Source of the DNA: a virus
Lineage: Duplodnaviria > Heunggongvirae > Uroviricota > Caudoviricetes
Virus record (IMG/VR): IMGVR_UViG_643348547_000003
Coordinates: 1-28,525 of that record
Direction: 5' to 3' (one strand)
Length of the DNA stretch: 28,525 nt
Each line of letters opens with the position of its first letter. The stretch's first letter is position 1. Below the pieces are notes generated by a model that had not been told where the DNA came from, did no database searches, and worked only from the letters and a program-made list of their open reading frames with translations. The position numbers were made by a program, and so were the translations under genes. Below are positions 8,804 through 27,229 of the stretch, in pieces.

Positions 8804-8812
8804 GGGGGAGCA

Positions 8813-9154: not shown

Positions 9155-9165
9155 AGGGGGATACA

Positions 9166-9549: not shown

Positions 9550-9557
9550 TGAAATTA

Positions 9558-9581
9558 GGGCCCGCTCTGGCTGGCGGGTCC
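9558..9581 (+). terminator. GC-rich stem-loop after the second AlpA-like gene
   Basis: GGGCCCGC, 8-nt loop, GCGGGTCC, followed by TTTCC. Imperfect stem and short U-tract. Confidence 0.3.
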
Positions 9582-9713
9582 TTTCCGGCGATCTGACAGG
9601 CTACGGGGCGTCAGGCGCGCAGTTTTTTGCTATTTGTGAAAATTTTCCTGTTTAAGGCGTTTCCGTTCTTCTTCGCCGTAACTTAATGTTTTTATTAAAA
9701 ACACCCCCTAAAA

Positions 9714-9770
9714 AGAAAGGAAACGACAGGTGCTAAAAACAGGCTTTTTGGCCTCTGTCGTTTCCTTTCT
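9714..9770. other. Long perfect 16-bp inverted repeat (structured RNA or bidirectional terminator) in a roughly 600-bp non-coding spacer
   Basis: AGAAAGGAAACGACAG (9714..9729), 25-nt loop with an inner mini-hairpin, CTGTCGTTTCCTTTCT (9755..9770). Lies between convergent genes. Confidence 0.4.
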
Positions 9771-10147
9771 CTGGTTTTGTTGCCATCCGTCGCGGTCTAT
9801 CACCAGAAAAAATCTTATCCCTGAGTTGAATCAGGCCCTATTCAGAAGCGGTCAATAACGCGCCGCTAGCTTCACTTCATAGTTATGGCCTACTTCTGCG
9901 CCATTGCAATTGCTTTATGCGCCTTGATGGTGGAATATAGAGCAAGCAGTTTGCGAATAACAAAGTTTCATATGTTTTTTGCTGTGTGGCTAGACAACTT
10001 TACAGCAGAGTTTTGTGTCAGTTCTTTATGTGTGCAAGCAAGCTTGAGGGGGAATTACTTCTGGCTGCATCTTTGCTTAAGAACAGCAATAATTTAATCA
10101 TAAGGAAATGTATATAAGCCTGATTAAATTTCAGGCTTATTGAAATG

Positions 10148-11290: not shown

Positions 11291-11499
11291 TGAATATTCC
11301 TTTATAATTTAACTAATTAAGTGAAGGAGGCTTTACTTGGCTGTGTTAGAAAAAATTCGGTTTGTTTTTTGTACGATGCCAAGAAGGCTTTTCCCTAACC
11401 ATGTATTGCAGCATGTATTGCTACGTAATTCTGCACCCTCTCATTTATAAAATAAATCTCTGTTAAATCAAGTATCTTTTTTCTATTTGACTCATGTAA

Positions 11500-12288
11500 C
11501 CCAAGCATGAGGTGAATCCGCAGATGACCCTGCGTCGCCTGCCGGATGAAGATCCGCAGAATCTGGCGGACCCGGCTTACCGCCGCCGTCGCATCATCAT
11601 GCAGAACATGCGTGACGAAGAGCTGGCCATTGCTCAGGTCGAAGAGATGCAGGCCGTTTCTGCCGTGCTTAAGGGCAAATACACCATGACCGGTGAAGCC
11701 TTCGATCCGGTTGAGGTGGATATGGGCCGCAGTGCGGCGAATAACATCACGCAGTCCGGCGGCACGGAGTGGAGCAAGCGTGACAAGTCCACGTATGACC
11801 CGACCGACGATATCGAAGCCTACGCGCTGAACGCCAGCGGTGTGGTGAATATCATCGTGTTTGATCCGAAAGGCTGGGCGCTGTTCCGTTCCTTCAAAGC
11901 CGTCAAGGAGAAGCTGGATACCCGTCGTGGCTCTAATTCCGAGCTGGAGACAGCGGTGAAAGACCTGGGTAAAGCGGTGTCCTATAAGGGGATGTATGGC
12001 GATGTTGCCATCGTCGTGTATTCCGGACAGTACGTGGAAAACGGCGTCAAAAAGAACTTCCTGCCGGACAACACGATGGTGCTGGGGAACACTCAGGCAC
12101 GCGGTCTGCGTACCTATGGCTGTATTCAGGATGCGGACGCACAGCGCGAAGGCATTAACGCCTCTGCCCGTTACCCGAAAAACTGGGTGACCACCGGCGA
12201 TCCGGCGCGTGAGTTCACCATGATTCAGTCAGCACCGCTGATGCTGCTGGCTGACCCTGATGAGTTCGTGTCCGTACAACTGGCGTAA
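11500..12288 (+). pseudogene. E: Lambda major capsid protein E, 5'-truncated fragment (about C-terminal 260 aa)
   Basis: Translation PKHEVNPQMTLRRLPDEDPQNLADPAYRRRRIIMQNMRDEE... to ...DPDEFVSVQLA matches my recollection of lambda gpE from about residue 80 to the end. An in-frame TAA sits immediately upstream (11497..11499) and the upstream sequence is unrelated. Confidence 0.85.
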
Positions 12289-12329
12289 TCGTGGCCCTTC
12301 GGGGCCATTTTCTCTCTGTGGAGGAGTCC

Positions 12330-12728
12330 ATGACGAAAGATGAACTGATTGCCCGTCTCCGCTCGCTGGGTGAACAACTGAACCGTGATGTCAGTCTGAC
12401 GGGGACGAAAGAAGAACTGGCGCTCCGTGTGGCAGAGCTGGAAGAAGAGCTTGATGACACGGGCGACACTGCCGGTCAGGATACCCCTCTCAGCCCGGAA
12501 AATGTGCTGACCGGGCATGAACATGAGGTGGTATCAGCGCAGCCGGATACCGTGATTCAGGATACGGCTGAACTGGTCACGGTCGTGGCACTGGTGACGC
12601 TGCATACTGATGCACTTCACGCCACGCGGGATGAACCTGTGGCATTTGTGCTGCCGGGAACGGCGTTCCGTGTCTCTGCCGGTGTGGCAGCTGAAATGAC
12701 AGAGCGCGGCCTGGCCAGAATGCAATAA
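12330..12728 (+). CDS. FI: Lambda-like FI (DNA packaging / head-tail joining accessory protein)
   Basis: 132 aa, MTKDELIARLRSLGEQLNRDVSLTGTKEELALRVAELEEELDD..., near-identical to lambda gpFI as I recall it. GGAGGAG ribosome-binding site. Confidence 0.9.
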   Translation: MTKDELIARLRSLGEQLNRDVSLTGTKEELALRVAELEEELDDTGDTAGQDTPLSPENVLTGHEHEVVSAQPDTVIQDTAELVTVVALVTLHTDALHATRDEPVAFVLPGTAFRVSAGVAAEMTERGLARMQ

Positions 12729-12739
12729 CGGGAGGCGCT

Positions 12740-13093
12740 GTGGCTGATTTCGATAACCTGTTCGATGCTGCCATTGCCCGCGCCGATGAAACGATACGCG
12801 GGTACATGGGAACGTCAGCCACCATGACATCCGGTGAGCAGTCCGGCGCAGTAATACGTGGTGTTTTTGATGACCCTGAAAATATCAGCTATGCCGGACA
12901 GGGCGTGCGCGTTGAAGGCTCCAGCCCGTCCCTGTTTGTCCGGACTGATGATGTGCGGCAACTGCGGCGTGGAGACACGCTGACCATCGGTGAGGAAAAC
13001 TTCTGGATAGATCGTGTTTCGCCGGATGATGGCGGAAGCTGTCATCTCTGGCTTGGGCGGGGCGTACCGCCTGCCGTTAACCGTCGCCGCTGA
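12740..13093 (+). CDS. FII: Lambda-like FII (head-tail connector)
   Basis: 117 aa, MADFDNLFDAAIARADETIRGYMG...HLWLGRGVPPAVNRRR, matching lambda gpFII. Confidence 0.9.
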   Translation: MADFDNLFDAAIARADETIRGYMGTSATMTSGEQSGAVIRGVFDDPENISYAGQGVRVEGSSPSLFVRTDDVRQLRRGDTLTIGEENFWIDRVSPDDGGSCHLWLGRGVPPAVNRRR

Positions 13094-13104
13094 AAGGGGG
13101 ATGT

Positions 13105-13683
13105 ATGGCCATAAAAGGTCTTGAGCAGGCCGTTGAAAACCTCAGCCGTATCAGCAAAACGGCGGTGCCTGGTGCCGCCGCAATGGCCATTAACCGCGTT
13201 GCTTCATCCGCGATATCGCAGTCGGCGTCACAGGTTGCCCGTGAGACAAAGGTACGCCGGAAACTGGTAAAGGAAAGGGCCAGGCTGAAAAGGGCCACGG
13301 TTAAAAATCCGCAGGCCAGAATCAAGGTTAACCGGGGGGATTTGCCCGTAATAAAGCTGGGTAACGCGCGGATTGTCCTGTCCCGACGCAGGCGTCGTAA
13401 AAAGGGGCAGCGTTCAGCCCTGAAAGGTGGCGGCAGCGTGCTTGTGGTGGGAAACCGTCGTATTCCCGGCGCGTTTATTCAGCAACTGAAAAATGGCCGC
13501 TGGCATGTTATGCAGCGTGTGGCCGGGAAAAACCGTTACCCCATTGATGTGGTGAAAATCCCGATGGCGGTGCCACTGACCACGGCGTTTAAACAGAATA
13601 TTGAACGGATACGGCGTGAGCGTCTTCCGAAAGAGCTGGGCTATGCGCTGCAGCATCAACTGAGAATGGTAATAAAGCGATGA
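13105..13683 (+). CDS. Z: Lambda-like Z (tail completion protein)
   Basis: 192 aa, MAIKGLEQAVENLSRISKTAVPGAAAMAINRV..., matching lambda gpZ. Confidence 0.9.
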   Translation: MAIKGLEQAVENLSRISKTAVPGAAAMAINRVASSAISQSASQVARETKVRRKLVKERARLKRATVKNPQARIKVNRGDLPVIKLGNARIVLSRRRRRKKGQRSALKGGGSVLVVGNRRIPGAFIQQLKNGRWHVMQRVAGKNRYPIDVVKIPMAVPLTTAFKQNIERIRRERLPKELGYALQHQLRMVIKR

Positions 13684-14075
13684 AACATACTGAACTCCGT
13701 GCAGCCGTACTGGATGCACTGGAGAAGCATGACACCGGGGCGACGCTTTTTGATGGTCGCCCCGCTGTTTTTGATGAGGCGGATTTTCCGGCAATTGCCG
13801 TTTATCTCACCGGCGCTGAATACACGGGCGAAGAGCTGGACAGCGATACCTGGCAGGCGGAGCTGCATATTGAAGTTTTCCTGCCTGCTCAGGTGCCGGA
13901 TTCAGAGCTGGATTCGTGGATGGAGTCCCGGATTTATCCGGTGATGAGCGATATTCCGGCACTGTCAGATTTGATCACCAGTATGGTGGCCAGTGGCTAT
14001 GACTACCGACGCGACGATGATGCGGGCCTGTGGAGTTCAGCCGATCTGACGTATGTCATTACCTATGAAATGTGA
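13680..14075 (+). CDS. U: Lambda-like U (tail terminator protein)
   Basis: 131 aa, [38 protein letters not shown]..., matching lambda gpU. ATGA overlap with Z. Confidence 0.9.
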
Positions 14076-14082
14076 GGACGAT

Positions 14083-14823
14083 ATGCCTGTACCAAATCCA
14101 GTAATGCCGGTGAAAGGTGCCGGGACCACACTGTGGGTTTATAAGGGGAACGGTGACCCTTATGCGAACCCGCTTTCAGACGTTGACTGGTCGCGTCTGG
14201 CAAAAGTTAAAGACCTGACGCCCGGCGAACTGACCGCTGAGTCCTATGACGACAGCTATCTCGATGATGAGGATGCGGACTGGACTGCGACCGGGCAGGG
14301 GCAGAAATCTGCCGGAGATACCAGCTTCACGCTGGCGTGGATGCCCGGAGAGCAGGGGCAGCAGGCGCTGCTGGCGTGGTTTAATGAAGGTGATACCCGT
14401 GCCTATAAAATCCGCTTTCCGAACGGCACGGTCGATGTGTTCCGTGGCTGGGTCAGCAGTATCGGTAAGGCGGTGACGGCGAAGGAAGTGATCACCCGCA
14501 CGGTGAAGGTCACCAATGTGGGACGCCCGTCGATGGCTGAAGATCGCAGTACGGTGACGGCGGCAACCGGCATGACGGTAACGCCAGCCAGTGCGTCCGT
14601 AGTGAAAGGGCAGAGCACCACGCTGACCGTGGCATTCCAGCCGGAAGGCGTAACCGACAAGAGCTTCCGTGCGGTGTCTGCGGATAAAACAAAAGCCACC
14701 GTGTCGGTCAGTGGTATGACCATCACCGTGAACGGCGTTGCTGCAGGCAAGGTCAACATTCCGGTTGTATCCGGTAATGGTGAGTTTGCTGCGGTTGCAG
14801 AAATTACCGTCACCGCCAGTTAA
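14083..14823 (+). CDS. V: Lambda-like V (major tail protein with C-terminal Ig-like domain)
   Basis: 246 aa from the internal ATG at 14083 ([22 protein letters not shown]...), matching lambda gpV. The track ORF start at 14053 is upstream of the conserved start. Confidence 0.9.
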
Positions 14824-14838
14824 TCCGGAGAGTCAGCG

Positions 14839-15261
14839 ATGTTCCTGAAAACCGAATCATTTGAACATAACGGTGTGACCGTCACGCTTTCTGAACTGTC
14901 AGCCCTGCAGCGCATTGAGCATCTCGCCCTGATGAAACGGCAGGCAGAACAGGCGGAGTCAGACAGCAACCGGAAGTTTACTGTGGAAGACGCCATCAGA
15001 ACCGGCGCGTTTCTGGTGGCGATGTCCCTGTGGCATAACCATCCGCAGAAGACGCAGATGCCGTCCATGAATGAAGCCGTTAAACAGATTGAGCAGGAAG
15101 TGCTTACCACCTGGCCCACGGAGGCAATTTCTCATGCTGAAAACGTGGTGTACCGGCTGTCTGGTATGTATGAGTTTGTGGTGAATAATGCCCCTGAACA
15201 GACAGAGGACGCCGGGCCCGCAGAGCCTGTTTCTGCGGGAAAGTGTTCGACGGTGAGCTGA
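14839..15261 (+). CDS. G: Lambda-like G (tail assembly chaperone)
   Basis: 140 aa, MFLKTESFEHNGVTVTLSELSALQRIEHLALMKRQAEQ..., matching lambda gpG. Confidence 0.9.
   Translation: MFLKTESFEHNGVTVTLSELSALQRIEHLALMKRQAEQAESDSNRKFTVEDAIRTGAFLVAMSLWHNHPQKTQMPSMNEAVKQIEQEVLTTWPTEAISHAENVVYRLSGMYEFVVNNAPEQTEDAGPAEPVSAGKCSTVS
15237..15243 (+). other. Programmed -1 ribosomal frameshift site (G GGA AAG) for the G-T fusion
   Basis: Slippery heptamer GGGAAAG near the 3' end of G, at the point where the T frame opens. This is the conserved lambda G/GT recoding site. Confidence 0.8.
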
Positions 15262-15701
15262 GTTTTGCCCTGAAACTGGCGCGTGAGATGGGGCGACCCG
15301 ACTGGCGTGCCATGCTTGCCGGGATGTCATCCACGGAGTATGCCGACTGGCACCGCTTTTACAGTACCCATTATTTTCATGATGTTCTGCTGGATATGCA
15401 CTTTTCCGGGCTGACGTACACCGTGCTCAGCCTGTTTTTCAGCGATCCGGAGATGCATCCGCTGGATTTCAGTCTGCTGAATCGGCGCGAGGCTGACGAA
15501 GAGCCTGAAGATGATGTGCTGATGCAGAAAGCGGCAGGGCTTGCCGGAGGCGTTCGTTTTGGCCCGGACGGGAATGAAGTTATCCCCGCTTCCCCGTATG
15601 TGGCGGACATGACGGAGGATGACGTAATGCTGATGACAGTATCAGAAGGGATCGCAGGAGGAGTCCGGTATGGCTGCACCGGTAGGCGATCTGGTCGTTG
15701 A
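15243..15701 (+). CDS. T: Lambda-like T segment of the G-T tail assembly chaperone (expressed by -1 frameshift from G)
   Basis: ORF in the -1 frame overlapping the G end (FDGELSFALKLAREMGRPDWRAMLAGMSSTEYADWHRFY...), matching lambda gpT. No independent start is expected. Confidence 0.85.
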   Translation: MFDGELSFALKLAREMGRPDWRAMLAGMSSTEYADWHRFYSTHYFHDVLLDMHFSGLTYTVLSLFFSDPEMHPLDFSLLNRREADEEPEDDVLMQKAAGLAGGVRFGPDGNEVIPASPYVADMTEDDVMLMTVSEGIAGGVRYGCTGRRSGR

Positions 15702-18216
15702 TTTAAGTCTGGATGCGGCCAGATTTGACGAGCAGATGGCCAGAGTCAGGCGTCATTTTTCCGGTACGGAAAGTGATGCGAAAAAAACAGCGGCAGTCGT
15801 TGAACAGTCAATGAACCGGCAGGCGCTGGCTGCACAGAAAGCGGGGATTTCCGTCGGGCAGTATAAAGCTGCCATGCGTATGCTGCCTGCGCAGTTCACC
15901 GACGTGGCCACGCAGCTTGCAGGGGGGCAGAATCCGTGGCTCATCCTGCTGCAACAGGGTGGTCAGGTGAAGGACTCCTTCGGCGGGATGATCCCCATGT
16001 TCAGGGGGCTTGCCGGTGCGATCACCCTGCCGATGGTTGGTATCACTTCGCTGGCGGTGGCGACCGGTGCGCTGGCGTATGCCTGGTATCAGGGTGACTC
16101 AACCCTGTCCGATTTCAACAAAACGCTGGTCCTTTCCGGTAATCAGGCGGGACTGACGGCAGATCGTATGCTGGCCCTGTCCAGAGCCGGGCAGGCGGCA
16201 GGGCTGACGTTTAACCAGACCAGCGAGTCACTGACGGCGCTGGTGAATGCCGGTGTGCGTGGTGGTGAGCAGTTTGAGGCAATCAGCCAGAGTGTGGCGC
16301 GTTTCTCCTCTGCATCCGGCGTGGAGGTGGACAAGGTCGCTGAAGCCTTCGGGAAGCTGACCACTGACCCGACGTCTGGGTTGACGGCGATGGCACGTCA
16401 GTTCCATAACGTGACGGCGGAGCAGATTGCGTATGTTGCTCAGTTGCAGCGTTCCGGCGATGAAGCCGGGGCATTGCAGGCGGCGAACGAGGCCGCAACG
16501 AAAGGGTTTGATGACCAGACCCGCCGCCTGAAAGAGAACATGGGCACGCTGGAGACCTGGGCAGACAGGACTGCGCGGGCATTCAAATCCATGTGGGATG
16601 CGGTGCTGGATATTGGTCGTCCTGATACCGCGCAGGAGATGCTGATTAAGGCAGAGGCTGCGTTTAAGAAAGCAGACGACATCTGGAATCTGCGCAAGGA
16701 TGATTATTTTGTTAACGATGAAGCGCGGGCGCGTTACTGGGATGATCGTGAAAAGGCCCGTCTTGCGCTTGAAGCCGCCCGAAAGAAGACTGAGCAGCAG
16801 ACTCAACAGGACAAAAATGCGCAGCAGCAGAGCGATACCGAAGCGTCACGGCTGAAATATACCGAAGAGGCGCAGAAGGCTTACGAACGGCTGCAGACGC
16901 CGCTGGAGAAATATACCGTCCGTCAGGAAGAACTGAACAAGGCACTGAAAGACGGGAAAATCCTGCAGGCGGATTACAACACGCTGATGGCGGCAGCGAA
17001 AAAGGATTATGAAGCGACGCTGAAAAAGCCGAAGCAGTCCGGCGTGAAGGTGTCTGCGGGCGATCGTCAGGAAGACAGTGCTCATGCTGCCCTGCTGACG
17101 CTTCAGGCAGAACTCCGGACGCTGGAGAAGCATGCCGGAGCAAATGAGAAAATCAGCCAGCAGCGCCGGGATTTGTGGAAGGCGGAAAGTCAGTTCGCGG
17201 TACTGGAGGAGGCGGCGCAACGTCGCCAGCTGTCCGCACAGGAGAAATCCCTGCTGGCGCATAAAGATGAGACGCTGGAGTACAAACGCCAGCTGGCTGC
17301 ACTTGGCGACAAGGTCACGTATCAGGAGCACCTGAACGCGCTGGCGCAGCAGGCGGATAAATTCGCACAGCAGCAACGGGCAAAACGGGCAGCCATTGAG
17401 GCGAAAAACCGGGGGCTGACTGACCGGCAGGCAGCGCGGGACGCCACGGAACAGCGCCTGAAGGAACAGTATGGCGATAATCCGCTGGCGCTGAATAGCG
17501 TCATGTCAGAGCAGAAAAAGACCTGGGCGGCTGAAGACCAGCTTCGCGGGAGCTGGATGGCAGGCCTCAGGTCAGGCTGGAGTGAGTGGGAAGAGAGCGC
17601 CACGGACAGTATGTCGCAGGTTAAAAGTGCAGCCACGCAGACCTTTGATGGTATTGCACAGAATATGGCGGCGATGCTGACCGGCAGTGAACAGAACTGG
17701 CGCAGCTTCACCCGTTCCGTGCTGTCCATGATGACAGAAATTCTGCTTAAGCAGGCAATGGTGGGGATCGTCGGGAGTGTCGGCAGTGTCATTGGCGGTG
17801 CATCAGCGTCAGGCGGTACAGCCATTCAGGCATCTGCGGCGAAATTCCATTTTGCGACCGGAGGATTTACGGGAACCGGCGGCAAATATGAGCCAGCGGG
17901 GATTGTTCACCGTGGTGAATTTGTCTTCACGAAGGAGGCAACCAGCCGGATTGGCGTGGGGAATCTTTACCGGCTTATGCGCGGCTATGCCACCGGCGGT
18001 TATGTCGGTACACCGGGCAGCATGGCGGACAGTCGGTCGCAGGCGTCCGGGACGTTTGAGCAGAATAACCATGTGGTGATTAACAACGACGGCACGAACG
18101 GTCAGATAGGGCCACAGGCGCTGAAGGCTGTTTATGACGTAGCCCGTAAGGCGGCAATGGATGTTGTGACCGGGCAGATGCGTGATGGTGGTCTGTTCTC
18201 CGGAGGTGGACGATGA
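15670..18216 (+). CDS. H: Lambda-like H (tail tape measure protein)
   Basis: 848 aa, MAAPVGDLVVDLSLDAARFDEQMARVRRHF..., near-identical to lambda gpH as recalled, with a small deletion in the Gly-rich region near the C-terminus. Confidence 0.92.
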   Translation: MAAPVGDLVVDLSLDAARFDEQMARVRRHFSGTESDAKKTAAVVEQSMNRQALAAQKAGISVGQYKAAMRMLPAQFTDVATQLAGGQNPWLILLQQGGQVKDSFGGMIPMFRGLAGAITLPMVGITSLAVATGALAYAWYQGDSTLSDFNKTLVLSGNQAGLTADRMLALSRAGQAAGLTFNQTSESLTALVNAGVRGGEQFEAISQSVARFSSASGVEVDKVAEAFGKLTTDPTSGLTAMARQFHNVTAEQIAYVAQLQRSGDEAGALQAANEAATKGFDDQTRRLKENMGTLETWADRTARAFKSMWDAVLDIGRPDTAQEMLIKAEAAFKKADDIWNLRKDDYFVNDEARARYWDDREKARLALEAARKKTEQQTQQDKNAQQQSDTEASRLKYTEEAQKAYERLQTPLEKYTVRQEELNKALKDGKILQADYNTLMAAAKKDYEATLKKPKQSGVKVSAGDRQEDSAHAALLTLQAELRTLEKHAGANEKISQQRRDLWKAESQFAVLEEAAQRRQLSAQEKSLLAHKDETLEYKRQLAALGDKVTYQEHLNALAQQADKFAQQQRAKRAAIEAKNRGLTDRQAARDATEQRLKEQYGDNPLALNSVMSEQKKTWAAEDQLRGSWMAGLRSGWSEWEESATDSMSQVKSAATQTFDGIAQNMAAMLTGSEQNWRSFTRSVLSMMTEILLKQAMVGIVGSVGSVIGGASASGGTAIQASAAKFHFATGGFTGTGGKYEPAGIVHRGEFVFTKEATSRIGVGNLYRLMRGYATGGYVGTPGSMADSRSQASGTFEQNNHVVINNDGTNGQIGPQALKAVYDVARKAAMDVVTGQMRDGGLFSGGGR

Positions 18217-18542
18217 AAACCTTCCGCTGGAAAGTGAAACCCGGTATGGATGTGGCTTCGGCCCCTTCTGTAAGAAAGGTGCGCTTTGGTGATGGCTATT
18301 CCCAGCGAGCGCCTGCCGGGCTGAATGCCAACCTGAAAACGTACAGCGTGACGCTTTCTGTTCCCCGTTGGGAGGCCGCGGCGCTGGAGTCGTTTCTGGA
18401 AGAGCACGGGGGCTGGAAAGCCTTTCTGTGGACGCCGCCTTATGAGTGGCGGCAGATAAAGGTGACCTGCGCAAAATGGTCGTCGCGGGTCAGTATGCTG
18501 CGTGTTGAGTTCAGCGCAGAGTTTGAACAGGTGGTGAACTGA
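18213..18542 (+). CDS. M: Lambda-like M (tail tip protein)
   Basis: 109 aa, MKTFRWKVKPGMDVASAPSVRKVRFGDGYSQRAPAGLNANLKTY..., matching lambda gpM. Confidence 0.9.
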   Translation: MKTFRWKVKPGMDVASAPSVRKVRFGDGYSQRAPAGLNANLKTYSVTLSVPRWEAAALESFLEEHGGWKAFLWTPPYEWRQIKVTCAKWSSRVSMLRVEFSAEFEQVVN

Positions 18543-19240
18543 TGCAGGATATCCGGCAGGAAACACTGAATGAATGCACCCGTGCGGAGCAGTCGGCCAG
18601 CGTGGTGCTCTGGGAAATCGACCTGACAGAGGTCGGTGGAGAACGTTATTTTTTCTGTAATGAGCAGAACGAAAAAGGTGAGCCGGTCACCTGGCAGGGG
18701 CGACAGTATCAGCCGTATCCCATTCAGGGGAGTGGTTTTGAACTGAATGGCAAAGGCACCAGTACGCGCCCCACGCTGACGGTTTCTAACCTGTACGGTA
18801 TGGTCACCGGGATGGCGGAAGACCTGCAGAGTCTGGTCGGCGGAACGGTGGTCAGGCGTAAGGTTTATGCCCGTTTTCTGGATGCGGTGAACTTCGTCAA
18901 CGGAAACAGCGACGCCGATCCGGAGCAGGAGGTGATCAGCCGCTGGCGCATCGAGCAGTGCAGCGAACTGAGCGCGGTCAGTGCCTCTTTTGTACTGTCC
19001 ACGCCGACGGAAACGGATGGTGCCGTTTTTCCGGGGCGCATCATGCTGGCCAACACCTGCACCTGGACCTATCGCGGTGATGAGTGCGGTTATAACGGTC
19101 CGGCTGTCGCTGATGAATATGACCAGCCGACGTCCGATATCACGAAGGATAAATGCAGCAAATGCCTGAGTGGCTGTAAGTTTCGCAATAACGTCGGCAA
19201 CTTTGGCGGCTTCCTTTCCATTAACAAACTTTCGCAGTAA
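18542..19240 (+). CDS. L: Lambda-like L (tail tip protein)
   Basis: 232 aa, MQDIRQETLNECTRAEQSASVVLWEIDLTEVGGERYFF..., matching lambda gpL. Confidence 0.9.
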   Translation: MQDIRQETLNECTRAEQSASVVLWEIDLTEVGGERYFFCNEQNEKGEPVTWQGRQYQPYPIQGSGFELNGKGTSTRPTLTVSNLYGMVTGMAEDLQSLVGGTVVRRKVYARFLDAVNFVNGNSDADPEQEVISRWRIEQCSELSAVSASFVLSTPTETDGAVFPGRIMLANTCTWTYRGDECGYNGPAVADEYDQPTSDITKDKCSKCLSGCKFRNNVGNFGGFLSINKLSQ

Positions 19241-19245
19241 ATCCC

Positions 19246-19989
19246 ATGACAGAGACAGAATCAGCGATTCTGGCGCACGCCCGGCGATGTGCGCCAGCGG
19301 AGTCGTGCGGCTTCGTGGTGAGAACGCCGGAGGGGGAAAGATATTTTCCCTGCGTGAATATCTCCGGTGAGCCGGAGGCGTATTTCCGTATGTCGCCGGA
19401 GGACTGGCTGCAGGCAGAGATGCAGGGTGAGATTGTCGCGCTGGTCCACAGCCATCCCGGTGGTCTGCCCTGGCTGAGTGAAGCCGACCGGCGGCTGCAG
19501 GTGCAGAGTGATTTGCCGTGGTGGCTGGTCTGCCGGGGGACGATTCATAAGTTCCTCTGTGTGCCGCATCTCACCGGGCGGCGCTTTGAGCACGGGGTGA
19601 CGGACTGTTACACGCTGTTCCGGGATGCTTATCATCTGGCGGGGATTGAGATGCCGGATTTTCATCGCGGGGATGACTGGTGGCGTCACGGTCAGAATCT
19701 CTATCTGGATAATCTGGAGGCCACAGGGCTGTATCAGGTGCCGTTGTCATCAGCACAACCGGGCGATGTGCTGCTGTGCTGTTTTGGTTCATCGGTGCCG
19801 AATCATGCCGCCATTTACTGTGGTGATGGCGAGCTGCTGCACCATATTCCTGAACAACTGAGCAAACGAGAGAGGTATACCGACAAATGGCAGCGACGCA
19901 CACACTCCCTCTGGCGTCACCGGGCATGGCACGCATCTGCCTTTACGGGGATTTGCAACGATTTGGCCGCCGCATCGATCTTCGTGTGA
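19246..19989 (+). CDS. K: Lambda-like K (tail tip assembly protein, MPN/JAMM plus NlpC/P60-like)
   Basis: 247-aa ORF with JAMM-like motif ALVHSHPGG and a Cys/His region. The lambda annotation may start at the internal Met corresponding to 19390 (199 aa). Confidence 0.85.
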   Translation: MTETESAILAHARRCAPAESCGFVVRTPEGERYFPCVNISGEPEAYFRMSPEDWLQAEMQGEIVALVHSHPGGLPWLSEADRRLQVQSDLPWWLVCRGTIHKFLCVPHLTGRRFEHGVTDCYTLFRDAYHLAGIEMPDFHRGDDWWRHGQNLYLDNLEATGLYQVPLSSAQPGDVLLCCFGSSVPNHAAIYCGDGELLHHIPEQLSKRERYTDKWQRRTHSLWRHRAWHASAFTGICNDLAAASIFV

Positions 19990-20558
19990 AAACGGGGGCT
20001 GAAGCTATCCGGGCGCTGGCCACACAGCTCCCGGCGTTTCGTCAGAAACTGAGCGACGGCTGGTATCAGGTACGGATTGCCGGGCGGGACGTCAGCACGT
20101 CCGGATTAACGGCGCAGTTACATGAGACTCTGCCTGATGGCGCTGTGATTCATATTGTTCCCAGAGTCGCCGGGGCCAAGTCAGGTGGTGTATTCCAGAT
20201 TGTCCTGGGAGCTGCCGCCATTGCCGGATCATTCTTTACTGCCGGAGCCACCCTTGCAGCATGGGGGGCAGCCATTGGGGCCGGTGGTATGACCGGCATC
20301 CTGTTTTCTCTCGGTGCCAGTATGGTGCTCGGTGGTGTGGCGCAGATGCTGGCACCGAAAGCCAGAACTCCCCGTACACAGACAACGGATAACGGCAAAC
20401 AGAACACCTATTTTTCCTCACTGGATAACATGGTTGCTCAGGGCAATGTTCTGCCTGTTCTGTACGGTGAAATGCGTGTGGGGTCGCGGGTGGTTTCTCA
20501 GGAGATCAGCACGGCAGACGAAGGGGACGGTGGTCAGGTTGTGGTGATTGGTCGCTGA
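19887..20558 (+). CDS. I: Lambda-like I (tail tip assembly protein)
   Basis: 223 aa, MAATHTLPLASPGMARICLYGDLQRFGRRIDLRVKTG..., matching lambda gpI. Overlaps the 3' end of K. Confidence 0.9.
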   Translation: MAATHTLPLASPGMARICLYGDLQRFGRRIDLRVKTGAEAIRALATQLPAFRQKLSDGWYQVRIAGRDVSTSGLTAQLHETLPDGAVIHIVPRVAGAKSGGVFQIVLGAAAIAGSFFTAGATLAAWGAAIGAGGMTGILFSLGASMVLGGVAQMLAPKARTPRTQTTDNGKQNTYFSSLDNMVAQGNVLPVLYGEMRVGSRVVSQEISTADEGDGGQVVVIGR

Positions 20559-20618
20559 TGCAAAATGTTTTATGTGAAACCGCCTCCGGGCGGTTTTGTC
20601 GTTTATGGAGCATGACGA

Positions 20619-23600
20619 ATGGGTAAAGGCAGCAGTAAGGGGCATACCCCGCGCGAAGCGAAAGATAACCTGAAATCCACGCAGCTGTTGAGTGCGATTG
20701 ATGCCATCAGCGAAGGGCCGATTGAAGGTCCGGTGGATGGATTAAAAAGCGTGCTGCTGAACAGTACGCCGGTGCTGGACAGTGAGGGGAATACCAATAT
20801 CTCCGGCGTCACGGTGGTGTTCCGGGCAGGTGAGCAGGAGCAGTCACCGCCGGAGGGATTTGAATCCTCCGGTTCCGAGACGGTGCTCGGTACGGAAGTG
20901 AAATATGAAACGCCGATCACCCGGACCATCACGTCGGCAAACATCGACCGTCTGCGCTTTACCTTCGGTGTACAGGCACTGGTGGAAACCACCTCAAAGG
21001 GAGACAGGAATCCGTCGGAAGTCCGCCTGCTGGTTCAGATACAGCGTAACGGTGGCTGGGTGACGGAAAAAGACATCACCATTAAGGGCAAAACCACCTC
21101 GCAGTATCTGGCCTCGGTGGTGGTGGATAACCTGCCGCCGCGCCCGTTCAATATCCGGATGCGCAGGATGACGCCGGACAGCACCACAGACCAGCTGCAG
21201 AACAAAACGCTCTGGTCGTCATACACCGAGATCATCGATGTGAAACAGTGCTACCCGAACACGGCACTGGTCGGCGTACAGGTGGACTCGGAGCAGTTCG
21301 GCAGCCAGCAGGTGAGCCGTAATTATCATCTTCGCGGGCGCATTCTGCAGGTGCCGTCGAACTATAACCCGCAGACGCGACAATACAGCGGTATCTGGGA
21401 CGGAACGTTAAAACCAGCATACAGCAACAACATGGCCTGGTGTCTGTGGGATATGCTGACCCACCCGCGCTACGGCATGGGGAAACGTCTTGGTGCGGCG
21501 GATGTGGACAAATGGGCGCTGTATGTCATCGGCCAGTACTGCGACCAGTCAGTGCCGGACGGCTTTGGCGGCACGGAGCCGCGCATCACCTGTAATGCGT
21601 ACCTGACCACACAGCGCAAGGCGTGGGATGTGCTCAGTGATTTCTGCTCGGCGATGCGCTGTATGCCGGTATGGAACGGGCAGACGCTGACGTTCGTGCA
21701 GGACCGACAGTCGGATAAGGTGTGGACCTATAACCGCAGTAATGTGGTGATGCCGGATGATGGCGCGCCGTTCCGCTACAGCTTCAGCGCCCTGAAGGAC
21801 CGCCATAATGCCGTTGAGGTGAACTGGATTGACCCGGACAACGGCTGGGAGACGGCGACAGAGCTTGTTGAAGATACGCAGGCCATTGCCCGTTACGGTC
21901 GTAATGTCACGAAGATGGATGCCTTTGGCTGTACCAGCCGGGGGCAGGCACACCGCGCCGGGCTGTGGCTGATTAAAACGGAACTGCTGGAAACGCAGAC
22001 CGTGGATTTCAGCGTGGGCGCAGAAGGGCTTCGCCATGTGCCGGGCGATGTTATTGAAATCTGCGATGATGACTATGCCGGTATCAGCACCGGTGGTCGC
22101 GTGCTGGCGGTGAACAGCCAGACCCGGACGCTGACGCTCGACCGTGAAATCACGCTGCCATCCTCCGGTACCACGCTGATAAGCCTGGTTGACGGAAGTG
22201 GCAATCCGGTCAGCGTGGAGGTTCAGTCCGTCACCGACGGCGTGAAGGTAAAAGTGAGCCGTGTTCCTGACGGTGTTGCTGAATACAGCGTATGGGGGCT
22301 GAAGCTGCCGACGCTGCGCCAGCGACTGTTCCGCTGCGTGAGTATCCGTGAGAACGACGACGGCACGTATGCCATCACCGCCGTGCAGCATGTGCCGGAA
22401 AAAGAGGCCATCGTGGATAACGGGGCGCACTTTGACGGCGAACAGAGTGGCACGGTGAATGGTGTCACGCCGCCAGCGGTGCAGCACCTGACCGCAGAAG
22501 TCACTGCAGACAGCGGGGAATATCAGGTGCTGGCGCGATGGGACACACCGAAGGTGGTGAAGGGCGTGAGCTTCCTGCTTCGCCTGACCGTGGCAGCGGA
22601 TGACGGCAGTGAGCGGCTGGTCAGCACGGCCCGGACGACGGAAACCACATACCGCTTCACGCAACTGGCGCTGGGAAACTACAGGCTGACAGTCCGGGCG
22701 GCAAATGCCTGGGGGCAGCAGGGCGATCCGGCATCGGTATCGTTCCGTATTGCCGCACCGGCAGCGCCGTCGCGGATTGAGCTGACGCCGGGCTATTTTC
22801 AGATAACCGCCACGCCCCATCTTGCCGTTTATGATCCGACGGTACAGTTTGAGTTCTGGTTCTCGGAAAAGCGGATTGCGGATATCAGGCAGGTTGAAAC
22901 CACAGCCCGCTATCTTGGCACGGCGCTGTACTGGATAGCTGCCAGTATCAATATCAAACCGGGCCATGATTATTATTTTTACATCCGCAGTGTGAACACC
23001 GTTGGCAAATCGGCATTTGTGGAGGCTGTTGGCCAGCCGAGTGATGATGCATCCGGCTATCTGGATTTTTTCAAAGGCGAGATAGGGAAAAGCCATCTGG
23101 CTCAGGAGCTGTGGACGCAGATTGATAACGGTCAGCTTGCGCCTGACCTGGCTGAAATCAGGACGTCCATTACGGATGTCAGCAATGAAATCACGCAGAC
23201 CGTCAATAAGAAACTGGAAGACCAGAGTGCGGCAATTCAGCAGATACAGAAGGTTCAGGTTGATACAAATAATAACCTGAACAGCATGTGGGCTGTGAAG
23301 CTGCAGCAGATGCAGGACGGACGCCTTTATATCGCGGGTATTGGTGCCGGTATTGAGAACACCCCTGACGGCATGCAGAGTCAGGTGCTGCTGGCGGCGG
23401 ACAGGATTGCGATGGTTAATCCTGCGAATGGCAACACAAAGCCGATGTTTGTTGGTCAGGGCGATCAGATATTCATGAACGAAGTGTTCCTGAAATATCT
23501 GACGGCTCCCACCATTACCAGCGGCGGTAATCCTCCGGCATTTTCCCTGACACCGGACGGGCGGCTGACGGCGAAAAATGCCGATATCAGCGGTAACGTG

Positions 23601-24098
23601 AATGCGAACTCCGGGACGCTCAACAACGTCACGATTAACGAGAACTGCCGGGTTCTGGGAAAACTGTCCGCGAACCAGATTGAAGGCGATCTCGTTAAAA
23701 CAGTGGGTAAAGCTTTCCCCCGGGACTCCCGTGCACCGGAACGGTGGCCATCAGGGACCATTACCGTCAGGATTTATGACGATCAGCCGTTTGACCGGCA
23801 GATTGTTATTCCGGCGGTGGCATTCAGCGGCGCTAAACATGAGAGAGAGCATACTGATATTTACTCCTCATGCCGTCTGATAGTGCGGAAAAACGGTGCT
23901 GAAATTTATAACCGTACCGCGCTGGATAATACGCTGATTTACAGTGGCGTTATTGATATGCCTGCCGGTCACGGTCACATGACGCTGGAGTTTTCGGTGT
24001 CAGCATGGCTGGTAAATGACTGGTATCCCACAGCAAGTATCAGCGATTTGCTGGTTGTGGTGATGAAGAAAGCCACTGCAGGCATCACGATTAGCTGA
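20619..24098 (+). CDS. J: Lambda-like J (central tail fibre / host specificity protein) with a variant C-terminal region
   Basis: 1159 aa. The N-terminal 800 aa or so follow lambda gpJ ([24 protein letters not shown]...). The last 330 aa or so diverge from the lambda C-terminus as I recall it. Confidence 0.92.
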
Positions 24099-24117
24099 AT
24101 TTTATAACCCCAATACG

Positions 24118-24141
24118 GGCGTCAGAAATGACGCCTTTTTT
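24118..24141 (+). terminator. Rho-independent terminator between J and lom
   Basis: GGCGTCA (24118..24124), GAAA loop, TGACGCC (24129..24135), followed by TTTTTT. Confidence 0.7.
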
Positions 24142-24165
24142 ATTGCAGAAAAGCGAGAGGTAATT

Positions 24166-24765
24166 ATGCGTAAATTATGTGCTGTTATTCTGTCCGCAGT
24201 AGTCTGGCTGGTTGCCGCTGGTACGCCAGCGAGCGCAGCAGAGCATCAGTCCACACTAAGCGCCGGGTATCTTCAGACCCACACTGATATGCCAGGAAGC
24301 GATAATCTGAACGGGATTAACGTGAAATACCGTTATGAATTTACGGACACGCTGGGGCTGATTACGTCTTTCAGTTATGCCGACGCAGAAGATGAACAAA
24401 AAACGCATTACAGCGATACCCGCTGGCATGAAGATTCCGTGCGTAACCGCTGGTTCAGCATGATGGCGGGGCCATCTGTACGCGTGAATGAATGGTTCAG
24501 TGCTTATGCGATGGCAGGTGTGGCTTACAGCCGTGTGTCGACGTTCTCCGGGGATTATCTCCGCGTAACTGACAACAAGGGGAAAACGCACGATGTGCTG
24601 ACCGGAAGTGATGACGATCGCCACAGCAACACGTCTCTGGCGTGGGGAGCTGGCGTGCAGTTTAACCCGACCGAATCCGTGGCCATTGATATTGCTTATG
24701 AAGGCTCCGGCAGTGGCGACTGGCGCACTGACGGTTTCATCGTGGGTGTCGGTTATAAGTTCTGA
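24166..24765 (+). CDS. lom: Lom outer-membrane protein (Ail/Lom family)
   Basis: 199 aa with signal peptide MRKLCAVILSAVVWLVAAGTPASA and a beta-barrel sequence ending GVGYKF, matching lambda Lom. Confidence 0.9.
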   Translation: MRKLCAVILSAVVWLVAAGTPASAAEHQSTLSAGYLQTHTDMPGSDNLNGINVKYRYEFTDTLGLITSFSYADAEDEQKTHYSDTRWHEDSVRNRWFSMMAGPSVRVNEWFSAYAMAGVAYSRVSTFSGDYLRVTDNKGKTHDVLTGSDDDRHSNTSLAWGAGVQFNPTESVAIDIAYEGSGSGDWRTDGFIVGVGYKF

Positions 24766-24791
24766 TTAGCCAGGTAACACAGTGTTATGAC

Positions 24792-24818
24792 AGCCCGCCG
24801 GTTCAGGCGGGCTTTTTT
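24792..24818 (+). terminator. Rho-independent terminator downstream of lom
   Basis: AGCCCGCC (24792..24799), GGTTCA loop, GGCGGGCT (24806..24813), followed by a T-run to 24818. Confidence 0.8.
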
Positions 24819-24829
24819 GTGGAGTGGAT

Positions 24830-27229
24830 ATGGCAGCAGTAAAAATCTCAGGTGTGCTGAAAGATGGTGCGGGAAAACCAATACAGAACTGCACTATTCA
24901 ACTGAAGGCAAAGCGTAACAGCACCACGGTACTGGTGAACACGGTGGCCTCTGAAAATCCGGATGAAGCCGGGCGTTACAGCATGGATGTTGAGTATGGC
25001 CAGTACAGCGTTATCCTGCTTGTTGAAGGTTTTCCGCCTTCACATGCCGGAACCATTACCGTCTATGAAGGTTCCAGACCAGGTACGCTGAATGATTTTC
25101 TCGGTGCCATGACGGAAGATGATGTCATGCCGGAGGCATTGCGTCGTTTTGAGGAAATGGTGGAAGAAGCGGCACGCAACGCCGAAGCCGCCTCTCAGAG
25201 CGCAGCGGCGGCAAAGAAATCCGAAACTGCAGCGGCATCATCGAAGAACGCGGCGAAAACCTCAGAAACGAATGCAGCTAATAGTGCACAGGCGGCAGCG
25301 ACCTCACAGACTGCATCAGAAAACTCCGCGACAGCAGCCAAAAAATCAGAAACCAACGCGAAAAATAGCGAGACAGCCGCAAAGACGAGCGAAACCAACG
25401 CAAAGTCCAGCCAGACGGCAGCGAAGACCAGCGAAACGAATGCCAAAGCCAGTGAAACTGCGGCAAAAAACAGCCAGGTTGCAGCAGCCCAAAGCGAGAG
25501 CGCGGCAGCCGGTTCTGCGACTTCAGCAACTGGATCAGCAACTGCTGCGGCTAACAGCCAGAAAGCTGCGAAGACGAGTGAAACTAACGCAAAGTCCAGC
25601 CAGACGGCAGCGAAGACCAGCGAAACGAATGCCAAAGCCAGTGAAACTGCGGCGAAAAACAGTCAGGATGCAGCAGCCCAAAGCGAGAGTGCCGCAGCTG
25701 GTTCTGCAAGTGCGGCGGCTTCTTCTGCCTCTGCATCAGCCAACAGTCAAAAAGCTGCAAAAACCAGTGAAACCAACGCAAAGGCGAGCGAGACTGCGGC
25801 GGCTAACTCAGCGAAAGCATCGGCAGCAAGCCAGACGGCTGCAAAAGCAAGTGAAGACGCAGCCAGAGAGTATGCAAGCCAGGCTGCGGAGCCGTATAAA
25901 CAAGTTTTGCAGCCGCTTCCCGATGTGTGGATACCGTTTAACGATTCACTGGATATGATTACGGGCTTTTCGCCGTCATATAAAAAGATTGTTATTGGTG
26001 ATGATGAAATAACGATGCCTGGCGATAAGGTTGTAAAGTTTAAACGCGCATCAACTGCCACATATATCAATAAATCAGGCGTATTTAGTGTTGCTAAAAT
26101 TGATGAGCCACGATTTGAAAAAGAAGGTTTATTGATTGAAGGACAGCGCACTAACTATTTTGTTAAATCCAATATCCCCGCTGAATGGACGAGTACCAGC
26201 AATATCGATAAAACTAATAATGGTGTTGATGAATTTGGTTTTTCATATGCCAAAATGCGAACAAAAGATAATATGACAGGACAATCATCTGCACTTAGTC
26301 TGCATACATGCAGTGCATCCCGGGGGATTGATGTTAGTGGCGATAATAAGTATTGCACTGTTTCATGCAGGGTTAAAGCTCCTGATGGTCTTCGTTGTCG
26401 TTTGCGTTTTGAAAAATACGATGGGTCGGTTTATACATTTTTAGGAGATGCTTATTTAACTTTCGGAACTCTGATAATAGAAAAAACTGGCGGAGCAGCC
26501 AATAGAATAGCAGCTACTGCAACTAAAGATCCGGTTACAGGGTGGATTTTCTATGAGGCAACTATAGAAGCTGTTGAAGGTGAAACCTTAATTGGCGCAA
26601 TGATTCAGTATGCGCCGAAAAAAGGTGGTGTAACTGAAGCGGGAGATTATATTTACCTTGCAACACCACAATTTGAAAACGGCGGATGTGCTTCATCTTT
26701 TGTTATTACGACAACTGTACCCGCAACCCGCTCCAGTGATATGGTGACGATCCCAACTGAAAATAATATCTATAATAGACCGCTTACGTGCCTGGTCGAG
26801 GTTAATAGAAATTGGGGCGATATTCCTCCTAATGTAGCACCGCGTATTTTTGATTTTTCTGGTGTGCCACCTATTGAGTCAATTACATACGCTTTTAACA
26901 CAACTGAGAAATATTACGGTCAGCTTTATATGCAAACTTATAAAGCGTCGACAAGTACTTACGTTTCTAGTGTGTTTGCTGGTCGAACTGATGTTCGAAA
27001 ATTCATTGGTGGTTTTAATATTTATTCTGATGGTACTAAACGAGTAGTTTCTAACGGTGAGGCTACTAAAACCATGAAAACGGAGTGGACGGGCGTAAAA
27101 ACACGGACCTTTATTCGAATTGGAGGTCAAGCCACATCGGGAACTCGTCATCTATTCGGCCATTTGAGAAATCTTCGTCTCTGGCATAAAGAATTAACTG
27201 ATGCGCAAATGGGGGAGAGTATTAAATGA
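24830..27229 (+). CDS. stf: Side tail fibre protein (Stf-like): lambda-type N-terminus, Ala/Ser/Thr-rich repeat shaft, non-lambda lectin-like C-terminal domain
   Basis: N-terminus AVKISGVLKDGAGKPIQNCTIQLKAKRNSTTV...HAGTITVYEGS parallels lambda Stf. ATG at 24830 with GGAG upstream (the track start at 24824 is GTG). The C-terminal 400 aa or so are AT-rich and end in a Laminin_G_3-like motif (HLFGHLRNLRLWHKELTDAQM). Confidence 0.85.
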   Translation: MAAVKISGVLKDGAGKPIQNCTIQLKAKRNSTTVLVNTVASENPDEAGRYSMDVEYGQYSVILLVEGFPPSHAGTITVYEGSRPGTLNDFLGAMTEDDVMPEALRRFEEMVEEAARNAEAASQSAAAAKKSETAAASSKNAAKTSETNAANSAQAAATSQTASENSATAAKKSETNAKNSETAAKTSETNAKSSQTAAKTSETNAKASETAAKNSQVAAAQSESAAAGSATSATGSATAAANSQKAAKTSETNAKSSQTAAKTSETNAKASETAAKNSQDAAAQSESAAAGSASAAASSASASANSQKAAKTSETNAKASETAAANSAKASAASQTAAKASEDAAREYASQAAEPYKQVLQPLPDVWIPFNDSLDMITGFSPSYKKIVIGDDEITMPGDKVVKFKRASTATYINKSGVFSVAKIDEPRFEKEGLLIEGQRTNYFVKSNIPAEWTSTSNIDKTNNGVDEFGFSYAKMRTKDNMTGQSSALSLHTCSASRGIDVSGDNKYCTVSCRVKAPDGLRCRLRFEKYDGSVYTFLGDAYLTFGTLIIEKTGGAANRIAATATKDPVTGWIFYEATIEAVEGETLIGAMIQYAPKKGGVTEAGDYIYLATPQFENGGCASSFVITTTVPATRSSDMVTIPTENNIYNRPLTCLVEVNRNWGDIPPNVAPRIFDFSGVPPIESITYAFNTTEKYYGQLYMQTYKASTSTYVSSVFAGRTDVRKFIGGFNIYSDGTKRVVSNGEATKTMKTEWTGVKTRTFIRIGGQATSGTRHLFGHLRNLRLWHKELTDAQMGESIK
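25379..25709 (+). repeat. Tandem duplication (about 189-bp unit, 2 near-identical copies) inside stf, within a wider KTSETNAK-type repetitive shaft
   Basis: Protein segment AAKTSETNAKSSQTAAKTSETNAKASETAAKNSQ(V/D)AAAQSESAAAGSA occurs twice, 63 aa apart. Shorter SETNAK-containing repeats extend across about 25211..25860. Confidence 0.6.

Follow-up and report, generated by a model that had tools for sequence, protein, structure and literature searches.

Satellite insertion and IS629-associated deletion in a lambdoid prophage remnant with intact tail genes in Escherichia coli IAI39

Among the described systems, the closest match to the locus analyzed here is Eco567.11capE, an HE-PICI (a helper-embedded satellite) residing in helper prophage 50icd of NRG857c, for which inducible excision restoring the late gene has been established experimentally (Tommasini, Mageeney & Williams 2023, PMC10111431). 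The same study gave the distance of the doubled motif tgTGTATTGCantgTGTATTGCa of HE-PICIs from the attP center as 81 ± 2 bp on the upstream side and 132 ± 2 bp on the downstream side, described a cos-region segment of ~258 bp that is common to satellite and helper and 90% identical, and mentioned the "abandoned" HE-PICI state only in passing. The chromosomal site of our locus, between fimZ/argU and ompT/envY/nfrA, is that of DLP12 in strain K-12. In K-12, DLP12 has retained the portion with Q, lysis, and nohD, and its head and tail genes are gone. Capsid-forming PICIs (cf-PICIs) are defined by portal, protease, terminase, and connector genes; sid, psu, and delta are genes of P4.

The window, i.e., the whole 28,525-nt stretch of DNA analyzed, derives from E. 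coli IAI39 (CU928164.2), and its positions 11498-28525 are, on sequence grounds, the right-hand (late) part of a lambdoid prophage at the tRNA-argU/DLP12 site (Table 1). We consider it very likely that the locus is a lambdoid prophage remnant in which a satellite split the capsid gene and an IS-associated deletion subsequently took the left half, a case of ordinary decay rather than a tailocin.

Like Eco567.11capE, the IAI39 element sits at codon 80 with the core AACCCAAGCA, has the doubled TGTATTGC arm motif at equal spacing and the same cos-like segment, and follows the series int, alpA, icd-like, DUF4222, primase, SSB, capsid E-like, decoration D-like, and HTH. It differs in that its helper occupies argU (the DLP12 site) instead of icd, in that its cargo is TIR-DUF3298 rather than HEPN plus DUF262, and in being a remnant from which the helper's whole left arm is gone. 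Decay via IS-associated deletion is shared with DLP12 and other IS-decayed lambdoid prophages, and DLP12-type genes (ybcL, ybcM, ybcN, ninE, rusA, Q, essD, rrrD, rzpD, and nohD) are present in the relative AR_0013; unlike DLP12, however, IAI39 kept the opposite half, from the 3' part of E (E') through the side tail fibers, and lost Q, the lysis genes, and the head genes. F-type pyocins and other non-contractile tailocins likewise comprise a lambda-like flexible-tail set with no portal, terminase, or complete capsid gene at the locus, but the IAI39 cluster has no lysis cassette, dedicated regulator or promoter, or cross-strain conservation, and FI, FII, and a fragment of E are still attached to it. 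As in cf-PICIs, major capsid and decoration proteins are encoded by the satellite itself, which would rely on tails from a helper, but it has no portal, protease, terminase, or connector genes and belongs to the HE-PICI integrase/att group instead.

Table 1. Features of the window (positions in the 28,525-nt stretch)
Feature	Position	Strand	Remarks
IS629-type (IS3 family) element	1-1268	-	far end beyond window; Pfam rve/HTH_21, HTH_Tnp_1
IS629-type orfB	1-891	-
IS frameshift pseudoknot	817-933	-	Rfam ALIL pseudoknot, 120 bits
IS629-type orfA	888-1214	-
HE-PICI tyrosine integrase pseudogene	1269-2180	+	first ~108 codons missing; Pfam Phage_integrase
alpA (excisionase/activator)	2182-2409	+	Pfam Phage_AlpA
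D5-type primase/helicase pseudogene	4746-6566	+	Pfam D5_N, DUF5906, Pox_D5
SSB	7096-7545	+	AR_0013 annotation; Pfam SSB in related loci
Satellite major capsid protein, lambda E family	7763-8803	+	Phage_cap_E 8e-41; 42% to lambda E, full length
Satellite head decoration protein, lambda D family	8813-9154	+	Pfam HDPD; 38% to lambda D
Satellite cos-like segment	9575-9780	+	89.8% to helper region just upstream of nohD/Nu1, NRG857c
TIR-DUF3298 cargo	10148-11290	-	variable right-end slot; Pfam TIR_2, DUF3298; candidate defense gene
Doubled TGTATTGC motif of HE-PICI att arms	11402-11421	+	TGTATTGCAGCATGTATTGC
attR core AACCCAAGCA	11498-11507	+	centered on codon 80 of helper E
E 3' part	11498-12288	+	residues ~80-341; tblastn 99.2% to lambda E 80-341 (11500-12285); Phage_cap_E positions 94-328
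FI	12330-12728	+	head completion/head-tail joining; intact; 93% to lambda; Pfam Packaging_FI
FII	12740-13093	+	head completion/head-tail joining; intact; 97% to lambda; Pfam Phage_attach
Z	13105-13683	+	99% to lambda, full length; Pfam match
U	13680-14075	+	98% to lambda, full length; Pfam match
V	14083-14823	+	99% to lambda, full length; Pfam match
G	14839-15261	+	100% to lambda, full length; Pfam match
T	15243-15701	+	99% to lambda, full length; Pfam match
H (tape measure)	15670-18216	+	95% to lambda, full length, no stops
M	18213-18542	+	95% to lambda, full length, no stops
L	18542-19240	+	99% to lambda, full length, no stops
K	19246-19989	+	96% to lambda, full length, no stops
I	19887-20558	+	99.6% to lambda, full length, no stops
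J (tail tip/host specificity)	20619-24098	+	1159 aa, intact; 83% to lambda J residues 1-1131
lom-family outer-membrane protein	24166-24765	+	44% to lambda Lom; AR_0013 annotation Ail/Lom
Side tail fiber region	24824-28525	+	stf-like 801-aa ORF, small ORFs, S74-chaperone-domain protein; Pfam
stf-like ORF	24824-27229	+	801 aa; Pfam phage_tail_N
S74-chaperone-domain protein	27517-28221	+	Pfam Peptidase_S74

A satellite island at codon 80 of the helper capsid gene

The island, ~10.7 kb in size, is an HE-PICI with the site designation E:Phage_cap_E:80, and its backbone (1269-9780) is 99.2-99.3% identical at the nucleotide level to Eco567.11capE of NRG857c, with matching gene order. Its layout is that of HE-PICIs: int, alpA, a replication zone (primase and SSB), and a late zone that includes captured capsid genes. 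The integrase, truncated here, is colinear with the AR_0013 int (full gene, L001 8446-9681) from L001 8770 onward and can be assigned to the HE-PICI clade by gene order and by identity from codon ~108. An identical AlpA protein is encoded in islands immediately downstream of Nu1-A-W-B-C-D in 10/10 distinct contexts. The alpA/late operon (2182-9549) is co-oriented with the tail cluster and reads toward it. The cos-like segment corresponds to the cos-region segment shared by satellite and helper in PMC10111431. In the right-end slot, which holds other cargo in other family members, the TIR-DUF3298 protein matched PADLOC through its TIR domain only. An Rfam scan of the window returned the IS3 frameshift pseudoknot and nothing else. 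A P4-like class was dropped, with no sid, psu, or delta genes present, as was the cf-PICI class, the Pfam matches of the island including no portal, terminase, or protease genes.

The satellite is disabled, because attL, together with the left att arm, is missing from the window island, int is truncated, and the primase gene has a nonsense codon (TGG>TAG at 4824-4826, codon 27); the same stop is found in AR_0013, and the primase gene of 11capE in NRG857c is intact (TGG). Given the loss of attL and the 5' end of int, excision of the island is predicted to be impossible.

The break in E at residue 80 is evidently the attR junction of the HE-PICI and not a deletion endpoint. The island entered the lambda-E cognate at codon 80, in the orientation of this helper late gene, and a short identity block is present. 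The 10-bp attR core is also present at attL in AR_0013 (L001 8273-8282), the identity block "aacccaagca" is the one listed for Eco567.11capE, and joining the two parts of E across the core yields a 341-aa E identical to lambda E at 340/341 residues. The doubled motif ends 81.5 bp upstream of the core center in the window, and its attL-side counterpart in AR_0013 starts 133.5 bp past the core center, spacings that fit the published HE-PICI values; in the window, only attR survives, the attL-side copy of the motif having been deleted. Within the window alone, E begins at residue 80 after non-phage-like sequence, as would be expected had the head-gene deletion itself cut E at ~80, with the island adjacent by chance. 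However, the break matches the core of a known integration site to the base, the arm motif is present at the published spacing, a matching attL with E(1-80) was found in 173 complete genomes, and the actual deletion endpoint lies elsewhere, at 1268/1269. The attL junctions in other genomes, the identity block of the type element, and the rebuilt E refute a plain deletion endpoint, to which we assign next to no probability. Island integration as the cause of the cut in E had been missed by the earlier note.

Late genes of the helper and the deletion beside argU

Lambda proteins were compared with the window by tblastn for length, stops, and amino acid identity. No internal stops interrupt FI, FII, Z, U, V, G/T, H, M, L, K, I, J, or lom; each product spans the full length and is 83-100% identical to its lambda counterpart, lom excepted (44%). 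For the side tail fiber region, identity to lambda orf-401 is 59%. Inspection of the sequence places the slippery heptamer of G/T, G GGA AAG, at 15237-15243 in frame with G. Thus, the earlier description of the Z-to-J tail genes as present in intact frames with a conserved frameshift site stands, whereas head genes are not lacking from the window: it contains FI and FII, and the island has its own E-family capsid and D-family decoration genes. The claim that the head region was lost before about residue 80 of E holds insofar as the helper head genes are absent from the IAI39 locus, but the break itself is attR rather than a deletion edge. Upstream of the IS are the helper int stub, tRNA argU, fimZ, and the sfm genes.

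The deletion endpoint is located ~10.2 kb to the left of the E break, inside the satellite int and abutting the IS, the terminal repeat of which, TGAACCGCCCCGGG, ends at 1268. Upstream of the tail region, the order in IAI39 is folD, sfm genes, fimZ, argU, helper int stub, IS, and truncated satellite int, so that the IS629-type element links the helper integrase stub beside tRNA argU to codon ~108 of the satellite int. The helper accordingly adjoins the island on the downstream side only, and the locus is the remnant of a helper-satellite composite, not a working one. The interval lost from IAI39 amounts to ~19 kb, group II intron included, in the undeleted AR_0013. On the helper side, it took in the DLP12-type genes (ybcL through rusA), the antiterminator gene Q, the lysis genes, iss/bor, cos, Nu1, A, W, B, C, D, and E(1-80), and, on the satellite side, attL and the 5' part of int; by analogy with lambda, the late promoter pR' would have gone together with Q. 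At argU, AR_0013 likewise has this int stub and an IS629, but Q, the lysis genes, and the head genes come next. The window IS is 100% identical to the AR_0013 sequence annotated "IS629 family"; relative to the copy flanking this stub in AR_0013, however, it lies in the opposite orientation and is shifted by 9 bp. A simple adjacent deletion in one step, starting from a state like that of AR_0013, can therefore not have produced the junction.

Among the genomes compared, the deletion junction was found in IAI39 alone. The E(1-80)-attL-int junction occurs in 173/5,426 complete E. coli genomes; this family count was taken from the attL query, since the short attR query undercounts (15 genomes) because the arm beside the variable cargo differs. 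In AR_0013, NRG857c, and 10/10 other contexts, the helper flanks the island on both sides, head genes preceding it and tail genes following; Nu1-A-W-B-C-D lie directly upstream of the island in AR_0013 and in 10/10 distinct contexts, and an E(1-80) fragment is called or annotated after D in AR_0013 and in 4/10 of these contexts. By contrast, the IS/int junction is absent from the 5,426 complete genomes (a set to which IAI39, NC_011750, does not belong) and has no match among species-representative genomes, and the truncated int product, a 334-aa TTG-start ORF, is recorded in one contig only, that of IAI39. Because only 1 base in the ~7 kb of E'-M separates IAI39 from AR_0013, which kept all head genes, the deletion must be recent, and the earlier suggestion of a recent deletion was essentially right. 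Elsewhere, there is a 1-base intergenic indel at about 19,245, J differs at 4 nucleotides, and the side tail fiber region (24824-28525) shows zero differences; the differences from AR_0013 cluster as recombination patches.

Alternative readings of the tail gene cluster

The head-less, non-contractile tail cluster could be viewed as a domesticated F-type tailocin, under selection, expressed, and released as a bacteriocin-like particle, a possibility raised by the earlier note. All eleven lambda tail-assembly genes and the side-fiber genes are intact, the G/T frameshift site is present, and lambda tail assembly, as is well established, proceeds independently of heads. However, the interval from argU to the tail genes contains no holin, endolysin, spanin, regulator, or Q/late-promoter region, and no lysis cassette or regulator/promoter was found in the window or downstream in the equivalent locus of related strains. 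A consensus promoter scan, a weak method, gave no more hits than in shuffled sequence, and, taken together with lambda biology, suggests that a recognizable lambda-type late promoter is absent for the tail genes. The tail set is complete, yet FI, FII, the E fragment, and the satellite E and D genes adjoin it. Only one genome has the head-less junction, with no conserved head-less arrangement across strains found among the 5,426 complete E. coli genomes, and near-identity to a head-bearing relative accounts for the intact frames without selection, the existing differences from AR_0013 being the clustered recombination patches. Lacking a lysis cassette, a regulator, a recognizable late promoter, and recurrence in other genomes, the tailocin idea is unsupported, and we regard it as extremely unlikely.

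Equally doubtful is a working helper-satellite pair, in which the island would build capsids from its own E- and D-like proteins and take only tails from the remnant, as cf-PICIs do. The island is indeed a satellite of this prophage type, encoding capsid and decoration proteins of its own and bearing a cos-like segment, and FI, FII, and all tail genes are still beside it, so that the supply of tails to the neighboring island, also proposed earlier, is sound as history. It is no longer workable, however: with attL and the first ~108 codons of int missing, the island cannot excise, its primase is interrupted at codon 27, it has no portal, protease/scaffold, or terminase genes and the helper copies are deleted, and the late-promoter region is gone. 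We further consider it very unlikely that the Z-J and stf cluster is transcribed from satellite promoters, with IAI39 making free lambda-type tails; if so, these tails would be a nascent tailocin or a source of tails for other satellites or for incoming phages.

The favored reading, satellite insertion followed by deletion, involves the following course of events. An 11capE-family HE-PICI inserted through its own tyrosine integrase at codon 80 of the helper E, splitting the gene and leaving attR. In the IAI39 lineage, an IS629-type-associated deletion then removed the interval between the 3' helper int stub and codon ~108 of the satellite int. The remaining late genes would thus be transcriptionally orphaned, the tail genes lacking the single late promoter that serves their lambda counterparts and probably being intact only owing to the very recent date of the deletion. 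Since a satellite without attL and with a truncated int would be unable to excise, E would be beyond restoration.

Implications for prophage annotation and evolution

The locus does not point to new biology. In line with the decay seen here, every IAI39 prophage had been judged defective on account of IS insertions (De Paepe et al. 2014, PMC3945230). The locus does provide an example of an "abandoned" HE-PICI, the helper of which was truncated afterwards. A lambdoid capsid gene starting at residue ~80 beside an int-alpA-primase island is an annotation signature of a helper-embedded satellite, and such a start of E should not pass for a deletion boundary or a tailocin. Finally, incoming lambdoid phages could still acquire tail or host-range modules from these intact, near-lambda tail genes through recombination, a role of prophages that has been shown generally (De Paepe et al. 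2014, PMC3945230).

Gene content of the window

The layout was established by combining an ORF listing with Pfam scans and with tblastn searches of the window using all lambda late proteins as queries (Table). Each lambda gene from FI through J yielded a full-length, stop-free match (83-100% identity), the slippery heptamer G GGA AAG is located at 15237-15243 in the G frame, and lom was matched over its full length at 44% identity. These results bear out the earlier description of an intact tail set with the G/T frameshift site, and of an E gene starting at about residue 80, because the tblastn match covers lambda E residues 80-341. The accompanying claim that the window lacks head genes needs qualification, as it does not hold for FI and FII or for the E- and D-like proteins encoded by the adjacent island.

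Table. Features of the window
Feature	Position	Strand	Remarks
IS3-family element	1-1268	minus	orfB 1-891, orfA 888-1214
ALIL frameshift pseudoknot in IS	817-933		Rfam
Tyrosine integrase without 5' end	1269-2180
alpA	2182-2409
D5-type primase	4746-6566
SSB	7096-7545
Island lambda-E-family capsid gene	7763-8803		42% identical to lambda E
Island D-family decoration gene	8813-9154
HTH gene	9166-9549
TIR-DUF3298 gene	10148-11290	minus
Lambda E residues 80-341 (E')	from ~11500		99.2% identical
FI, FII, Z, U, V, G, T, H, M, L, K, I, J, lom, side tail fibre genes	right of E'		in that order

The frame of the island capsid gene is open for 58 codons upstream of the annotated 7763 start (7589-8803; 404 versus 346 aa), with the lambda E homology beginning at 7766. 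The 801-aa stf ORF contains an internal direct repeat at 25364-25801 (about 249 bp, 84% identical, 189-bp offset); in Escherichia coli AR_0013, an undeleted relative, PGAP annotates this gene as fragments although it has an identical, uninterrupted ORF.

A satellite integrated within gene E

Gene E is broken at an integration junction; the deletion ends about 10 kb to the left of it. A megablast search against complete E. coli genomes showed that window 1269-28525 is colinear with AR_0013 (99.65% identity). In AR_0013, the island resides within gene E: its integrase is directly preceded by Nu1 (nohD), A, W, B, C, D and a 5' fragment of E (246 bp), and the 3' portion of E comes after the TIR gene. 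Both junctions share the 10-bp core AACCCAAGCA (window 11498-11507; 8273-8282 in L001, the AR_0013 region around the island), centred on codon 80 of E, and when the 5' part of E from AR_0013 is fused over this core to the 3' part from the window, the product is a stop-free 341-aa protein identical to lambda E at 340 of 341 residues. An exact-protein look-up with the island AlpA placed the island directly downstream of Nu1-A-W-B-C-D in all 10 distinct contexts; in four of these, D was followed by a distinct E(1-80) gene call. Of 5,426 complete E. coli genomes, 173 carry the E(1-80)-attL-int junction, attL being the left island junction, and 394 carry the satellite E/D capsid module, which is thus shared with satellites at other sites. 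In the public assembly collection, 11,553 blocks list the exact 75-aa AlpA sequence.

Elements of this kind have been termed helper-embedded PICIs (HE-PICIs) by Tommasini, Mageeney and Williams (2023; PMC10111431), and many of their helpers look truncated. The type element is Eco567.11capE from E. coli NRG857c. It is inserted into codon 80 of a lambda-E cognate (E:Phage_cap_E:80, a site with 201 mapped instances) and has a 10-bp identity block and its own capsid gene (PMC10111431). This block, aacccaagca in the supplement of that study, is the same as the window core. A doubled motif specific to HE-PICIs flanks the attP centre, at 81 +/- 2 bp on the upstream side and 132 +/- 2 bp on the downstream side (PMC10111431); consistent with this spacing, TGTATTGCAGCATGTATTGC at 11402-11421 ends 81.5 bp before the core centre, and the other copy, in AR_0013, is found 133.5 bp after it. 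Over the island backbone (1269-9780), identity to Eco567.11capE reaches 99.2-99.3% and the gene order is the same, the sole difference being the right-end cargo, TIR-DUF3298 in the window versus HEPN and DUF262 in NRG857c. The locus is a remnant of this already described element type. Window 9575-9780 shares 89.8% identity with the helper region just upstream of nohD/Nu1 in NRG857c and matches the shared cos-region segment of PMC10111431; it is the presumed packaging (cos) site of the satellite and the only cos-like sequence remaining at the locus.

Loss of the upstream interval in IAI39

The match to AR_0013 breaks off upstream of 1269. When the 334-aa ORF that crosses from the IS into int was looked up as an exact protein, a single contig was returned, E. 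coli IAI39 (CU928164.2), with window position 1 corresponding to position 8826 of the IAI39 contig region (L014). Its upstream order is folD, sfmA-F, fimZ, tRNA argU, ~280 bp of a prophage integrase 3' end, the IS and the satellite integrase from codon ~108. AR_0013 also has this integrase stub at argU, together with an IS629 that is interrupted by a group II intron (ltrA); beyond these lie DLP12-type genes (ybcL to rusA), Q, essD, rrrD, rzpD, iss, Nu1 to E(1-80) and the island. The two gene orders show that IAI39 lost everything between the helper integrase stub and codon ~108 of the satellite int. The lost DNA includes Q, cos, the lysis genes, the entire head gene set, attL with the left att arm and, by analogy with lambda, probably the late promoter pR' along with Q. 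The IS629-type element of IAI39 is inverted relative to the AR_0013 IS629 beside the same stub, with a 9-bp displacement (window 1-1268; L014 8786-10093; 7803-11382 in L025, the AR_0013 argU-side region); the deletion was therefore no simple one-step adjacent event.

Among the readings offered in the earlier note, a recent deletion is the correct one, with the correction that the break in E is the integration junction. The IS/int junction was found in none of the 5,426 complete E. coli genomes and in none of the species-representative genomes, and records of the truncated integrase product come from a single contig. Only four positions differ from AR_0013 across 1269-11499 and 15 across 11500-19240, 14 of the latter in L, so that E'-M is practically identical. 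Differences from AR_0013 are thus concentrated in two patches, in L-K-I (18816-20015, about 70 substitutions) and from the J 3' end through lom (24077-24537, about 20), the rest of J and stf being identical. Such clustering resembles the outcome of recombination, not of decay, and suggests recent gene-conversion-like exchange with other lambdoid prophages. Given the near-identity and the clustering, recency accounts for the open frames and selection is not needed. An F-type tailocin, also proposed for the intact tail cluster, fares poorly. In lambda, every late gene depends on pR' and Q acting in cis; in the IAI39 locus, Q and all its surroundings are deleted, and a consensus scan recovered no more promoter-like sites than in shuffled sequence. 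No lysis genes or regulators are left at the locus, nor are any encoded downstream at the same locus in relatives. The tailocin reading thus fails on lysis and regulation, and also on conservation, the arrangement being restricted to one contig.

State of the satellite and its cargo

That the tails serve the neighbouring island is correct as history, but not as a working arrangement. With attL missing and int truncated, the satellite is predicted to be unable to excise, and its primase carries a TGG>TAG nonsense mutation at codon 27 (4824-4826). This stop is common to AR_0013 and another locus of the island family (L006), the gene being intact in NRG857c and three further loci (L007, L008 and L010); the satellite was therefore decaying already before the IS-associated deletion. 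All IAI39 prophages were earlier classed as defective due to IS insertions (De Paepe et al. 2014; PMC3945230).

The TIR-DUF3298 protein matched PADLOC models via its TIR domain only. Window 9781-11486, in which it is encoded, corresponds to a variable cargo slot at the right end of this satellite family, occupied by HEPN and DUF262/GmrSD_N in NRG857c and L003 and, in further members, by Abi_C, AF_1680, DUF3892 or a Nu1-like small terminase. The right-end slot of the satellite looks like a defence-gene hotspot.
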